From a virus (lineage: Duplodnaviria; Caudoviricetes), in the IMG/VR virus record IMGVR_UViG_3300048623_000045, positions 1-60,067 of that record: DNA of 60,067 nt; one strand, written 5' to 3'. Both the position numbers and the translations under genes were made by a program. Each line of letters opens with the position of its first letter. The first letter of the stretch is position 1. The notes under the pieces are model-generated. The model saw only the letters and a program-made list of their open reading frames with translations. It ran no database searches and was not told where the DNA came from. Positions 52,441 through 57,983 of the stretch are shown piece after piece.

Positions 52441-54195
52441 TCACGAGCCGTCGCCCCCGCAGTCGGTGTCCGCCACCCGCAGCCGGTAGTCGTCCCCGTC
52501 CCGGACCACTTCGTCCTTCTCCAGCATCTTCGCCAGGGCGCCGTGGACGGAGGACTTCGCGCGGCCTGTCCTGTCCGCCAGCTCGGACAGGGACAGGCTG
52601 TCCGAGGACAGCAGCAGGACAGTCCAGATGTCCAGGGACACCGTGGACGCTGTCCTGTCCGGGACAGCGGACAGGACAGGACTCGGGACAGGACAGTCGG
52701 CGGACAGGGACTGTCCGGCTGTCCGGATCGGGAGGACAGTCCTGTCCTCCGCCCTGTCCGTGTCCTGTCCGCTGCCCGCCGTCCCGGACAGGGCTCGGAA
52801 ACTGTCCACGGACAGCCAGACAGCCTTCGCGTCCACCGGTTCGGTGTGCGTGTCGTCCTGGACCAGCAGCCAGCCGGGGCCGTACAGATCCTGCGGGGCC
52901 CAGCCGGCGGACACGTCGTCGTCACCGAAGACCACGCGCGCTTCCCCGTCGGTACGAAGCTTCATACACACCGTGGCGTTGAGCTGGGACCGAATCTCGG
53001 TCGGGAGCGAAGCGGCCTTCGGGAACTGGGTGGCCCACACCCAGTACACCCCGAGCGCCCGGCCCTGCTCCACGGCGGTGAACAGCCGCTTCAGCGGGGC
53101 ACCCTTCGCGCCGGCCTTCCCTCCCTCTTCCTCTGCTTCCTCGCGCCACTCCCCGAAGCCACGGACCAGGGCATTGCCCTCATCGACCACGATGACCAGT
53201 GCCGGATCCCACGGCGTCTCCACCCATTCGGAGACGCCGCGCTCCTTCATCTTCGCCGCGCGTCGGGGGAACTCGGTATCCAGCAGCCAGTCCACCCGGG
53301 ACACCGCGTCCCCCACCGAGGTCACCTGGTGCGCCTTGCCCGCGTAGTGCTGGGCCTCCACCCCGTGCTTGAAGTCCCAGACGTCCAGCTCGGCATCGAT
53401 CGCCGCGGCGACGTGCGCCCCGATCAGCCGCTGAGCGCAGGACTTTCCGGAGCCGGAGGTGCCGAAGACGCCGATGCGCTGCTTCAGGTCCAGCTCCACC
53501 GTATCCCCGAACGCGGTCACCGCCAGCTTCAACGGGTGCGCCAGGCGGACCGGGACGGCAGGGGCCTCCCACGGCACCCCGTCCGCCAGCGGGTCCCGCA
53601 GCCGTACGTCCACGATGCCGCGGCCGGCTGTGACCCCCTTGCGCAGACGGATCGTCCCGGAGAGAACGTCCAGCCCGGTTTCGAGCTGGTCCACACCCCG
53701 CTGCACAACGGCGAAGTCCAGGCGCCCCCGGAATTCCACATGCACGGCCACGCCGTACGGGGTCGCCTCCATCTCCCCGCGCTCCAGTCCGGCCAGGTTC
53801 CGGTCACGGCACATTGCAGACCAGGATTCCTTCTGGAGCTTCTGGGCCAGCGCCTGCGGGATACCGAGCTTGTGCGCGAGCAGTTTCGCCCGGGGACCGT
53901 CCATCAGGGACGCCCCCTTTTCCGCTGCCTTTTCCAGGACCGGCGCGGGTGAATTCCCCCGGAGCTGTTCCATGCCGACGACCGGCAGCGCTTCCGGAGC
54001 GCTTCCAGAGCCCTTCGTGTCCTGCTTCGGACCCGTCTGCGGCACGGTCCGGTTCCGGCGCCCGGTCCACTTCACCGCGACCGCGATACCGACCGCGACG
54101 ACCAGGGTGAACACCCCTCCCGCGCTGATCCCGCTGTCCGGCTGCTGCTCGGTGACCGGCTGCGCCGGAACCGCTGTGGATGCCCCGTACTCCAT
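52441..54195 (-). CDS. traB: TraB-type FtsK/SpoIIIE conjugative DNA translocase
   Basis: N-terminal TM, GTSGSGKS Walker A, IVVDEG Walker B, QGRALGV..ATQFP, C-terminal wHTH (LSELADRTGRAKSSVHGAL). Confidence 0.85.
   Translation of the reverse strand: MEYGASTAVPAQPVTEQQPDSGISAGGVFTLVVAVGIAVAVKWTGRRNRTVPQTGPKQDTKGSGSAPEALPVVGMEQLRGNSPAPVLEKAAEKGASLMDGPRAKLLAHKLGIPQALAQKLQKESWSAMCRDRNLAGLERGEMEATPYGVAVHVEFRGRLDFAVVQRGVDQLETGLDVLSGTIRLRKGVTAGRGIVDVRLRDPLADGVPWEAPAVPVRLAHPLKLAVTAFGDTVELDLKQRIGVFGTSGSGKSCAQRLIGAHVAAAIDAELDVWDFKHGVEAQHYAGKAHQVTSVGDAVSRVDWLLDTEFPRRAAKMKERGVSEWVETPWDPALVIVVDEGNALVRGFGEWREEAEEEGGKAGAKGAPLKRLFTAVEQGRALGVYWVWATQFPKAASLPTEIRSQLNATVCMKLRTDGEARVVFGDDDVSAGWAPQDLYGPGWLLVQDDTHTEPVDAKAVWLSVDSFRALSGTAGSGQDTDRAEDRTVLPIRTAGQSLSADCPVPSPVLSAVPDRTASTVSLDIWTVLLLSSDSLSLSELADRTGRAKSSVHGALAKMLEKDEVVRDGDDYRLRVADTDCGGDGS
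52565..52825. repeat. Dense TGTCC/GGACA repeats in the 3' end of traB (clt-like)
   Basis: Many ctgtcc/ggacag copies in both orientations. Confidence 0.75.
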
Positions 54196-54218
54196 GATCC
54201 TCTTCCCTTCCGGTCACT

Positions 54219-54326
54219 GTTCGGTGTTCGTTCGTTCGGTGTTCGTTCGGTGCGTTCGCCCAGGTCGGCTACCGCCGAACGGCCCCGGAGGGTCTTTCCG
54301 GGGCCGAACGAACACCGAACGAACGG
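54219..54326. repeat. GTTCG repeat array forming a 22-bp perfect inverted repeat upstream of traB
   Basis: cgttcgttcggtgttcgttcgg (54229-54250) / ccgaacgaacaccgaacgaacg (54304-54325). Confidence 0.8.
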
Positions 54327-54821
54327 CTACATGTACCCAGCGACCCAGCCACCGAGGGTGTCCACGCCGGGCGCCATGAGGGTGGCGAAGAACCCGGCCA
54401 CGCCCGAGGACAGGGCCAGGCAGGTGCCGCTGACGAAGTACAGCGAGACCTCCAGCCGGCTGATCTTCCTGGACCTCAGGAAGACCAGGACCAGCACCAC
54501 GGTCGCCACCAGCACGACCAGGTGGCCGGGCGGGGTGAGCACCATGGAGACGGAACGTGTGACGTTCGATGTCCCGCTTCCGACGCCGTACAGAAGGGCT
54601 TTGTCCCCGACCTGGTTGGAGCCCCACAGAGAAATGTGCGCGAGCCATCCCAGGGCCCCGCCTGCGGACAGCGTGAGCAGCATTCCGTAGAGGAAGATCG
54701 GGAGGAACGGCAGAACCAGTCCCCGCCATCCCTTGGCCTTTCCCCCCATGACCCACAGCGTGATATGCCCGGCAATGATGGCGAGACCTACGGCCAGGCC
54801 TCCGAGCGATACGTAATTCAT
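54327..54821 (-). CDS. Multi-pass membrane protein (transfer/spread module)
   Basis: About four TM segments; AAGGAGG RBS; directly upstream of traB. Confidence 0.7.
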   Translation of the reverse strand: MNYVSLGGLAVGLAIIAGHITLWVMGGKAKGWRGLVLPFLPIFLYGMLLTLSAGGALGWLAHISLWGSNQVGDKALLYGVGSGTSNVTRSVSMVLTPPGHLVVLVATVVLVLVFLRSRKISRLEVSLYFVSGTCLALSSGVAGFFATLMAPGVDTLGGWVAGYM

Positions 54822-54835
54822 GGCCGTTCCTCCTT

Positions 54836-54988
54836 TCAGTTCAGTACGGCGAGCGCCCCGGACAGGGCGCCGAGAGCGAAGACAGCGGCGAATAACGCGC
54901 CCCGGTCCGGGGTCCCGGGAGGGCGCTGGGTCCGGATCCCGATCAGGGCAATGGCCATGAACAGCGGCCAGACGAAGGCGATGCTCAT
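54836..54988 (-). CDS. Small membrane protein (50 aa)
   Basis: MSIAFVWPLF...; two hydrophobic stretches. Confidence 0.55.
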   Translation of the reverse strand: MSIAFVWPLFMAIALIGIRTQRPPGTPDRGALFAAVFALGALSGALAVLN

Positions 54989-56720: not shown

Positions 56721-56744
56721 GGGTGGGGCTGAGTTCGGGCTGTC

Positions 56745-56927
56745 TTACCGGGCCCACCAGAACTTCCGCTTCTTCGCTTCGGCGCGGTGCTTGGCGTCCA
56801 GGTCGTGGAAGGCCTGGACCTGCTCCGTGTTCCAGCCCAGCTCTCCGTCCGGGTAGTGGTGGAGCCGGTCCCGGATCACGTCGAAAACGTCTTCCAGGAC
56901 ACCCACCTGTACGTCCGTCAGTTCCAT
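56745..56927 (-). CDS. Hypothetical protein
   Basis: GAGGA RBS, 60 aa. Confidence 0.6.
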   Translation of the reverse strand: MELTDVQVGVLEDVFDVIRDRLHHYPDGELGWNTEQVQAFHDLDAKHRAEAKKRKFWWAR

Positions 56928-56990
56928 GGTCTTCCTCAGTCGTCTCTGTCCGTCTTACTGGGTGAACGGCTTCGGGTTGAGCTGGATTAG

Positions 56991-57170
56991 TTATGACCGC
57001 GGCTTGCGCGTTTCTATGGCGTTGTGGATTTCAGGCACCTGATCAGGGTCTACCACTCCGACATAGCCGGTCCATCCGTACATGAGAGCCAGCCCATCTT
57101 TGACCACGAGACGGACGACTCGCTTGCCCCAGATGTAGAAACGCTCTTCGGTACCTAGGGTGATACGCAT
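56991..57170 (-). CDS. Small low-GC protein MRITLGTEERFYIWGK...RKPRS (59 aa)
   Basis: GACGGAGGG RBS, TTTACTTAAA motif upstream; below the ORF track length cutoff. Confidence 0.55.
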   Translation of the reverse strand: MRITLGTEERFYIWGKRVVRLVVKDGLALMYGWTGYVGVVDPDQVPEIHNAIETRKPRS

Positions 57171-57218
57171 CGCATGTCCCTCCGTCGTCTCGGTCCGTCT
57201 GATTTAAGTAAACCACAC

Positions 57219-57983
57219 TCACCCGTGAACGGGAACCGTGTACGTCAGCCGGTACCGGTCGGCCCGCAGCGTGCACCGGTCCACGCTGATCGGGGCCCCG
57301 CCGGTCGTCCGGTGCGTGATGAGCATCCGGACCACCCAGGCGGAGGACGGAAGCGCCAAGTCTCGCTGGTCCGTCTCGGTGGCCGGTCCGAACGCGATCG
57401 TCTCCTGCCGGTCCACCAGCGGGCAGCCCCGGTCCGCGAAAATCCGGTACGTCCCGCCTCGCACCAGCCCCTGCTGGGCGATCGCGGTGCCCGAGGCCAC
57501 GGCCAGCAGGTAGAAGGAGTCGGCGAGTTCCACCGGTTCCCCGTCCGCCAGCATCACCCGGGGCCGGAGCAGCACCGGGGCGCCGGGCTCGATGTCCAGC
57601 TCGGCTGCCACATCGTCCGGCGCCGGAACCTCGCCGACCCGGCCCAGTCGCTGGGTGCCCCGCATGCCGAGTTCGGCCAGGCGCTTGGTCCAGGTCTGCT
57701 GGCCCCCGTCCGCCGTGGGGGCCACGTAGGAAGAGGACGTGTGGATGACCGGGCGCCGGGACAGTACGCGGGTGCGTCGGCCCTGTCCGGTGTCGATGAG
57801 GCCCTCGCGGGCCAGCACCTGGAACGCGGACTTCACCGTGTCGTTGGTGGCCCCGTACGTGGTCCTCAGCTCGGCCACCGTGGGCAGCGTCCCGCCAGCG
57901 GGGTACTCGCCGCGTTCAATCGCGGAGCGCAGGGCGTCCGCCAGCGCCCGGTACTTCGTCGTGCGTGGGGGAGTGGTATCCAC
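57219..57983 (-). CDS. GntR/UTRA transcriptional regulator (TraR/KorA/KorSA-like)
   Basis: YRALADALR..I..GEY..G..LPT..EL, GLI....G; UTRA-like C-terminus; adjacent to the tra/spd operon. Confidence 0.85.
   Translation of the reverse strand: MDTTPPRTTKYRALADALRSAIERGEYPAGGTLPTVAELRTTYGATNDTVKSAFQVLAREGLIDTGQGRRTRVLSRRPVIHTSSSYVAPTADGGQQTWTKRLAELGMRGTQRLGRVGEVPAPDDVAAELDIEPGAPVLLRPRVMLADGEPVELADSFYLLAVASGTAIAQQGLVRGGTYRIFADRGCPLVDRQETIAFGPATETDQRDLALPSSAWVVRMLITHRTTGGAPISVDRCTLRADRYRLTYTVPVHG

Follow-up and report, generated by a model that had tools for sequence, protein, structure and literature searches.

Transfer modules made up of the DNA translocase TraB, a clt locus, Spd proteins and a TraR-type regulator are already known from Streptomyces plasmids and from integrative and conjugative elements of actinomycetes (AICEs). 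In plasmid pSVH1, TraR controls the genes spdB3-spd79-spdB2-orf108-traB, a layout matched by the locus described below (PMC4447253). Published clt loci are short direct-repeat arrays at, or overlapping, the 3' end of the tra gene (PMC3583192, PMC5133688): the clt of pWTY27 consists of 16 bp of traA plus 159 bp and holds TGACACC repeats, pJV1 has nine direct repeats (PMC3583192), and the winged helix of pSVH1 TraB reads an 8-bp TraB recognition sequence (TRS), GACCCGGA (PMC5133688, PMC3583192). The cases known from phages are pZL12 (phiZL12), which is 90 kb long, has ParA/ParB (PMC4487206) and needs a major tra gene together with adjacent genes for its transfer (PMC3583192); the SpdB2 homologues of phiC31 and VWB, which might help phage DNA to spread (PMC4447253); and the FtsK-like genes of cultured Streptomyces phages. 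The locus analysed here is a gene block around a TraB-like gene (traB), running from 57983 to 52441 in a 60,067-base IMG/VR virus record (IMGVR_UViG_3300048623_000045, Caudoviricetes), the whole of which is termed the window.

All parts of the block lie on the minus strand, at or near the places given to them in a first-pass annotation of the DNA, and every element listed there was found, namely a regulator with GntR and UTRA domains, a repeat, membrane proteins, a CxxC peptide and an FtsK-type ATPase with a C-terminal winged-helix domain. The regulator and the membrane proteins are encoded in one direction with traB. In common with the TraR(KorA)-Spd-TraB-clt systems of pSVH1, pIJ101 and pWTY27, the block specifies an anchored FtsK-like motor with a C-terminal winged helix and a GntR-type regulator, has small membrane proteins encoded in an operon before traB, and carries clustered repeats at or in the 3' end of the tra gene. 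Unlike those systems, it lies in a tailed-phage genome of about 58-60 kb without a plasmid rep or integrase gene, its membrane partner is not SpdB/DUF2637, its repeat word is GGACAG/GACAGGAC and not GACCCGGA, and its repeats are grouped in three clusters, of which two fall within coding linkers. By analogy with the plasmid systems, the block may be a phage-owned TraB/clt-type DNA translocation system that moves phage DNA between hyphal compartments or cells, the likeliest reading, which we regard as evenly poised between right and wrong. The new element is the three-cluster GGACAG/GACAGGAC repeat system, conserved in a phage TraB module; a full-text literature search, with many journals outside its coverage, returned no description of clt-like repeats or of a TraR-Spd-TraB operon in a phage without integrase and partition genes.

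For the repeat analysis, all 6-mers and 8-mers were scanned for clustering, no word being chosen beforehand. GGACAG was the most clustered 6-mer of the window, with 67 of its 148 copies in one 6-kb span (binomial p 2.6e-28, uncorrected for the scan), and the same word family heads the clustering list in three related viral genomes (G001, G003 and G004), always at the module. The longer word GACAGGAC was present in 19 copies against 3.96 ± 1.8 expected, a number reached in none of 100 shuffles, and 16 of the 19 fall in 52568-56660. The motifs form three clusters. Cluster A (52566-52815, both strands) comprises 24 GGACAG motifs in the 3' end of traB, where a disordered linker is encoded; cluster B (55559-55875, both strands) comprises 20 in the linker-coding 3' part of the gene for a 320-residue membrane protein, here termed Spd320; and cluster C (56601-56680) is intergenic, with 12 of 12 motifs, spread over 56603-56675, on the minus strand. 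Cluster C lies between the start of the Spd320 gene and a perfect 19-bp inverted repeat without spacer (56684-56721), a terminator-like hairpin ahead of the array, and contains the tandem repeat at 56601-56668 (period 12, 5.7 copies, 100% matches, unit GGACAGGACAGC, Tandem Repeats Finder score 136). The tandem-repeat locus of the first-pass annotation was thus confirmed, as one part of a conserved and strongly clustered motif system that fits a clt. In cluster A, GGACAG occurs in all three codon phases, sense and antisense, and in cluster B in several codon phases and both orientations; selection therefore acts on the DNA, and the GQD/DRT/LS-rich linkers of TraB and Spd320 are accordingly a by-product.

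The three-cluster layout recurs in G001, L010, G003 and L018, the last with a TraB identity of only 44%, and cluster A occupies the same position in all four. The intergenic array, likewise in the same position, runs almost wholly in the direction of transcription in these relatives (19:1 in G001, 19:1 in L010, 35:7 in G003 and 36:1 in L018). The unit of the array differs by strain, being a GGGACAG 7-mer in metagenome run X4 (loose end at 56613) and in G001 (24937-25062) and a 12-base unit in the window. By comparison with the published loci, the GGACAG/GACAGGAC clusters look like a clt/TRS-type site and are a candidate for TraB loading, cluster C being the best clt candidate.

The TraB-like translocase (52441-54195, 584 residues) matched a PHROG family of FtsK/SpoIIIE-like proteins (E 4.9e-29) and is divided into a membrane helix at about residues 21-45, a disordered spacer, an FtsK-type motor at about 100-470, a disordered linker at 473-516 and a winged helix at 519-572. 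The N-terminal membrane anchor was placed at 21-45 by hydropathy and at 25-43, as a helix, in an AlphaFold model. When relatives were aligned, the Walker A motif GTSGSGKS (245-252), the Walker B residues D338/E339 and many further motor residues showed no change in 19 of 19 sequences. When the model was compared with known structures in Foldseek, TcpA, the coupling protein of pCW3, and motor domains of FtsK came out on top (E about 1e-15 to 1e-16). The Pfam FtsK_SpoIIIE profile scored below its cut-off (16.9 against 24 bits) and HTH_IclR, at residues 533-566, above it (23.6 against 22 bits); the winged helix is modelled as three helices and a two-strand wing with a predicted local distance difference test score (pLDDT) of about 90.

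The motor fold is shared with FtsK and SpoIIIE, as the Foldseek matches indicate. In the FtsK/KOPS and SpoIIIE/SRS systems, a winged-helix domain reads short, oriented words of 8 bp, which is the same logic as that proposed here. The chromosomal proteins differ in being larger and in having several membrane spans, and their words are spread over the chromosome, whereas those of the window are crowded within about 650 bp of the element's own DNA.

The first-pass annotation had called the ATPase TraB-like and had left its separation from chromosomal FtsK to be checked, and best matches, profile models and a tree all placed it with the plasmid type. Its best plasmid matches (41% identity) are encoded by two small Streptomyces plasmids, in both of which the traB-like gene is followed by a small open reading frame (ORF) and then a DUF2637 gene, and pIJ101 Tra aligns with residues 116-568 at 25% identity. 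The top NCBIfam model was plasmid_TraB (E 2.4e-12), and no FtsK model was listed. A search of 50,697 phage records returned 18 matches, all of them proteins of Streptomyces phages annotated as 'FtsK-like DNA translocase' (24-29% identity). In a quick maximum-likelihood tree of 30 rows, a modest test with a single chromosomal FtsK row, all 27 TraB-like rows (the window clade, the TraBs of the small plasmids, pIJ101 Tra and gp70 of phage YDN12) fell on one side of a long branch (length 2.63, Shimodaira-Hasegawa-like approximate likelihood ratio test 94), with the chromosomal FtsK and proteins of 476 and 495 residues from the same Streptomyces genome on the other. A profile scan of bacterial genome contigs with the TraB alignment gave, among the matches listed, three weak, unrelated loci. 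The comparisons support a TraB-like ATPase that is nearer to plasmid Tra/TraB than to chromosomal FtsK.

The translocases of YDN12, TP1604, Xkcd426, Satis and Gilgamesh resemble that of the window in being phage-borne and TraB-like with a C-terminal winged helix, and YDN12 gp70 groups with pIJ101 Tra in the tree; they differ in that identity to the window protein is 24-29% over 54-58% of the query, and neither a GntR nor an Spd320 homologue was seen next to YDN12 gp70. YDN12 gp69 was tried as a relative of Spd320 and rejected. Between gp69 and gp70 (5130-5290 of the YDN12 locus), 7-8 repeats of GGAACGG stand in one orientation after a hairpin, directly upstream of the TraB-like gene, and by this arrangement they are the putative analogue, in a cultured phage, of the intergenic array of the window.

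The repeat words were compared with the recognition helices of the relatives. At the loci of the GGACAG family (window, G001, G003, L018 and G004), the winged helix reads G-R-(A/S)-K-S-(S/A)-V-H-G-A-L. In lineages whose TraB is of another type, different words are clustered at the places where the module has its repeats: L014, with the helix RDRGAVSRAI, has no GGACAG, and 10 of its 12 copies of GCGAAC stand at the 3' end of the Spd320-like gene; in L019 the clustered word is GGACAC(C), and 9 of its 25 copies of GGACAC fall within the 3' part of the Spd320-like gene; and YDN12 has GGAACGG. No GGACAG enrichment was found in the two small plasmids or in pIJ101. The word thus appears to change, in part, together with the TraB protein.

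Spd320 (55547-56509), a four-helix membrane protein, was assigned at least three hydrophobic spans by a hydropathy script, has a variable linker and a small C-terminal helical domain, and matched PHROG 35187 (7.4e-39) and PHROG 29416; no Pfam family matched it. It belongs to a sizeable family without a name (342 representatives at E <=0.001, 257 of them below 1e-30), with relatives in phage SF3 (gp69, hhalign 100%), in small actinomycete plasmids and beside traB in several phage contigs; the gene adjoins traB in L011-L015 and L019. The description 'Spd-like' in the first-pass annotation holds for its multi-span character and its position next to traB and fails for any relation to DUF2637/SpdB, so that the label is one of context. 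As SpdB2/DUF2637 it was rejected by BLASTP against two plasmid DUF2637 proteins (E 0.61 and 19), by hhalign (probability 0.4%) and by Pfam, in which DUF2637 matched one of 19 family members at E 0.13. The phiC31 and VWB proteins, which are of the SpdB2 type and come without a described TraB or clt, belong to a different family. Since the Spd proteins described in the literature differ greatly and many occur in a single plasmid only (PMC4170104), it is plausible, by analogy, that Spd320 works like an Spd protein.

Between the Spd320 gene and traB lie four small genes. The CxxC peptide (55389-55550, 53 residues) has two CxxCxG motifs (DnaJ_CXXCXGXG 19.3 bits, E 0.0014, below the cut-off of 32.7) and varies in its presence in the operon, since among the relatives only L009 and L010 have it (61% identity). 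Membrane proteins of 103 residues (54985-55296) and 50 residues (54836-54988, two spans) were recognized by hydropathy and by G+C at third codon positions, the former being conserved in G001, L010, G003 and L018. The third, a multi-span protein of 164 residues (54327-54821; PHROG 16379, E 2.5e-18), is a conserved partner of TraB, its gene standing directly upstream of traB in G001, L010, G003, L018 and G004 at 42-96% identity.

The regulator gene (57219-57983) encodes a HutC-type protein in which both Pfam domains scored above cut-off (GntR 48.9 bits, 5.1e-13; UTRA 72 bits, 5.8e-20); NCBIfam placed it as PhnF/HutC-like, and it is about 31-33% identical to GntR regulators of Streptomyces plasmids. 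In pIJ101 the GntR gene korA stands beside tra, and the window gene keeps its position in L008-L010; the protein is thus, by its place, the presumed analogue of TraR/KorA. An AT-rich palindrome of the TGGTTTAATTAAACCA type occurs in this 68% G+C genome at 28730, 36749, 51358, 51805, 52350, 57203, 58080 and 59785, with degenerate copies at 4059, 56543 and 58441. Mostly it stands a short way upstream of transcription units: it precedes those of the leftward arm at 51805, 52350, 57203, 58080 and 59785 and the capsid gene at 28730, and one signal is therefore common to the block and the remainder of the phage. The TraR site of pSVH1, TTTGGTACACAACT, is a HutC-type operator that resembles the TGGT..ACCA arms of the palindrome (PMC4447253). 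The palindrome may serve as operator for a regulator that acts globally, such as the GntR protein, for which the AT-rich palindromes and the (GTTCG)n arms before traB are candidate sites. The phage's own promoter and ribosome-binding signals had been reported in the block; the shared palindrome bears out the first of these, and the second was not upheld. The ribosome-binding-site-like word CGACGGAGG gave 60 matches against 54 ± 6.4 expected at one mismatch, which is not above chance, and was rejected as a phage-specific signal. A sigma-70 consensus scan of the window found no sites and a search for T-tract terminators found 3 against 3.3 expected, both being uninformative for a high-G+C phage.

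The 131-base gap before traB (54196-54326) holds a stem-loop with a 22-nt perfect inverted repeat, in which (GTTCG)n arms surround a G+C-rich hairpin; the fold predicted for the 150-nt stretch 54196-54345, which includes it, is -83.8 kcal/mol. A like fold precedes traB in G001, L009, L010, G003 and L018, and in L018 the bases of the inner hairpin have changed in ways that preserve it. Because unregulated TraB is toxic in plasmids (PMC4447253), the stem-loop is read as a limiter of traB expression and is probably an attenuator or regulator site that sets the dose of TraB.

Conservation of the block was examined in other viral contigs. A protein search returned a series of homologues of 54-90% identity on contigs of about 57-62 kb, and scans of viral contigs gave 12 loci, in which gene order was read by local tblastn. 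In L008-L010 the order is that of an 85-residue winged-helix protein, GntR, Spd320, the small membrane proteins, the 164-residue protein and TraB, with WhiB further on. At 62% TraB identity, L011/G003 retains the core (Spd320, the 103- and 164-residue proteins and TraB), and L017/G004, L018 and L019, at 44%, retain part of it. All six module genes tested are under purifying selection, with ratios of nonsynonymous to synonymous substitution (dN/dS, Nei-Gojobori, against G001 and G002) of 0.07-0.32: 0.07-0.09 for the 85-residue protein, 0.11-0.14 for GntR and 0.23-0.32 for TraB. A chimeric assembly, raised at the outset as a way in which the block might be spurious, is contradicted by the same gene order in independent viral contigs and by contigs of four metagenome runs that cover all 30 bins of the stretch, one piece spanning 50677-54464; no single contig covers the whole stretch, and the breaks fall at the repeat clusters. 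Contigs of run X4 join across 49921-50190, 51823-52457 and 58457-59807, and there are therefore strain variants in which the TraB module is kept and the gene for the gp5.9-like RecBCD inhibitor, the small ORFs to the left of traB or both of the methyltransferase-like genes are missing. L014 is a fragment of a different, temperate phage with a Prim-Pol/D5 protein, a tyrosine integrase and a terminase, in which TraB is followed by a relative of Spd320. In the same fragment (2878-3380), a stretch of 500 bases close downstream of the Prim-Pol/D5 gene holds 10 of 10 copies of ACCCCACA, which are probably replication-origin iterons.

The completeness of the genome was assessed by gene content and collinearity. 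Scans of 44 and 55 window ORFs with PHROG and Pfam, respectively, returned the full gene set of a tailed phage; the head, tail, lysis and replication genes that the first-pass annotation had called intact, the family A polymerase (PolA) and primase among them, were all present. They include the large terminase (20364-21752), portal, capsid (28911-30722), major tail, tape measure and tail proteins, an amidase endolysin (47168-48082), and a helicase, a D5-type primase, PolA and resolvases. In IMG/VR the record is entered as linear, and CheckV puts its completeness at 73%. By blastn the window is collinear over its full length with G001, a circularly assembled relative of 57,886 bases with terminal repeats; window base 1 falls at 22256 of G001 and base 60067 at 22319, and since the two ends are neighbours there, the window is essentially a whole, permuted genome. 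The description of the genome as complete is in this way supported indirectly. G+C content is about 0.68 across the window, with no compositional break at the block.

Tyrosine integrase, serine recombinase (two families) and ParA-type proteins (two families, PF13614 and PF01656) were found in none of five records (the window and G001-G004), in line with the absence of integrase and ParA noted at first sight; control genomes do match all three kinds of model. In lacking ParA the phage is unlike pZL12, which it resembles as a tailed-phage genome with a conjugation-type tra function. pZL12 had been named as a precedent, and it remains one for a plasmid-phage with a tra function; a detectable likeness of the window ATPase to its Tra was not obtained, in that TraB had no ZL12 match at E 1e-5 (ZL12 lies outside the 18 matched phage records) and only the GntR regulator matched, at 28.6% identity. 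The capsid protein is only 27-35% identical to that of any cultured phage, and megablast of 52000-58500 against cultured phages returned nothing, no cultured phage sharing the DNA of the block. No tRNA genes were found in the window. From the best matches of the module genes (Streptomyces plasmids and phages) and the G+C content, we infer a Streptomyces host, with less firmness as to genus than the first-pass annotation had expressed. The stretch is held in 24 metagenome runs from soil, root and rhizosphere, all dated 2023 and maybe from one campaign; no RNA data set is listed among them.

The analysis establishes the genes present, their nearest relatives, the fold, the conservation of the block and purifying selection on it, and a conserved, non-random siting of the repeats. 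The route that we infer, namely which protein would bind the repeats, that DNA would be moved and where it would go, can be put as follows. The HutC-type GntR regulator would control the leftward operon of Spd320, the CxxC peptide, three small membrane proteins and TraB, and the conserved long stem-loop just before traB would cap the dose of TraB. Membrane-anchored TraB would assemble an FtsK-like motor ring, the C-terminal winged helix of which would read the clustered GACAGGAC-type words at the three sites of the module. The loaded motor would then pump replicated double-stranded phage DNA through cross-walls to neighbouring compartments or touching hyphae, by a passage formed by the membrane proteins, and one adsorption event could thereby seed many compartments. 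Transfer of this kind would be independent of virions and would bypass receptors and entry-stage defences. In its widest form, the proposal is that a widespread clade of rhizosphere actinophages without integrase or partition genes passes replicating genomes by means of TraB and clt-like arrays, and that this virion- and receptor-free spread of infection or carriage replaces integration and partition; it is advanced tentatively and we think it rather doubtful.

The main rival is a carrier-state or segregation role, in which the phage persists as an unintegrated replicon and TraB reads the arrays and drives copies through the septa of vegetative growth and of sporulation, whereby every compartment and spore would receive the element, in place of integration and ParAB partition. 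It would be favoured by the lack of integrase and ParA in all five records, by the phage's own PolA and primase, by the presence of regulators (GntR, the 85-residue winged-helix protein and an HTH_17 protein at the divergent junction at about 7.5 kb), and by the TGGT..ACCA-armed palindrome at about 10 promoter-like sites, which would suit one global repressor. Chromosomal FtsK-family proteins move DNA at septa, which also counts for it. Its machinery overlaps with that of transfer between compartments or cells, the difference lying in purpose; no repressor-immunity region was identified and all 24 runs are soil, root or rhizosphere metagenomes, and we consider a carrier state unlikely. A second alternative, that the motor resolves or segregates replicating concatemers or acts on host DNA, with no transfer between cells and with the repeats as regulator or organising sites, would agree with the role in replication or host development suggested for FtsK-like genes of cultured Streptomyces phages (PMC11536984, PMC13587820, 10.1101/2024.02.16.580700) and with the place of the module among early genes of DNA-metabolism type (WhiB, a gp5.9-like RecBCD inhibitor and methyltransferases). 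That motor is, however, predicted to be anchored in the membrane and to share its transcript with four or five membrane proteins, conjugative TraB/Tra proteins are its closest relatives, and the phage has its own terminase and resolvases, so that purely intracellular handling is judged quite improbable. That the block is a hitch-hiking plasmid or AICE remnant, or interferes with competing plasmids or superinfecting phages, as homologues on small plasmids and in the integrase-bearing temperate-phage fragment L014 and the strain-variable flanking accessory genes (run X4 joints) might suggest, is very improbable in view of a block without its own rep or int gene, synteny held in phage contigs down to 44% TraB identity, purifying selection on all block genes tested, a promoter-associated palindrome common to block and phage, and recognition-type repeats located on the phage genome itself.

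Several observations weigh against a TraB/clt-type system that moves phage DNA between compartments or cells. The score of TraB against the curated plasmid_TraB equivalog model NF041214 was 46.2 bits against a cut-off of 800, and TraB as an equivalog of that group is ruled out. The tree relied on its one chromosomal FtsK and quick method; its result agrees with the searches. The functions suggested for the cultured phage genes, given above, are other than transfer, and Spd320, the membrane partner, has no relation to SpdB2/DUF2637. In G004 the GGACAG cluster is no more than weak (n=6). The helix of L019, RSKAAVHAAL, differs by one residue from that of G003, RSKSAVHAAL, yet L019 has no GGACAG enrichment, and covariation of helix and motif is therefore imperfect. 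The repeats could instead be read by the 85-residue winged-helix protein or by the C-terminal domain of Spd320.

If transfer by TraB and clt-like arrays does take place, it would constitute a third route of persistence in a multicellular host, beside lysogeny and plasmid-prophage partition, and phage spread in mycelial bacteria would not be confined to virion adsorption; views of plaque formation, host range, receptor-based resistance and gene flow among soil Streptomyces would change with it. A testable handle is provided by the candidate recognition word and the three array positions, conserved in a clade found in many soil and root metagenomes, and a further one by the analogous array before the TraB-like gene of cultured YDN12; the old idea that actinophages borrow plasmid-spread functions therefore becomes directly testable.

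The remaining features of the leftward, early-type arm (49921-60067, with the gp5.9-like RecBCD inhibitor, WhiB, the TraB block and two methyltransferase-like genes) were recorded as follows. Just upstream of the GntR gene, the 85-residue winged-helix protein (58164-58421, minus strand) gave weak Pfam matches to HTH_5 and TrmB; its identity is 98.8% in L008, L009 and L010, 67% in G003 and 58% in G004, its position is the same in all of these, and it is a possible member of the module. Two minus-strand frames of 59 and 60 residues (56991-57170 and 56745-56927) were taken from the ORF list, the first being present in no relative and the second, among relatives, only in G001.

Outside this arm, an unusual fusion was noted after the portal gene, where an ORF of 1103 residues (24382-27693) combines an RNA-ligase-like N-terminus with regions of portal-family and head-protease PHROGs. 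Sugar-modification genes at 17557-19746 (NAD epimerase, glycosyltransferase-like and methyltransferase-like) and a second glycosyltransferase after the endolysin (48426-49685) may serve in DNA or cell-surface modification. Within the minus-strand ORF 1361-4060, a 987-base in-frame insertion relative to G001 was located at 1871-2857, its flanks abutting at 20343/20345 of G001; the product has a LAGLIDADG_3 domain at residues 599-661, and the insertion probably represents an intein or a homing endonuclease within a gene for an exonuclease/ATPase.

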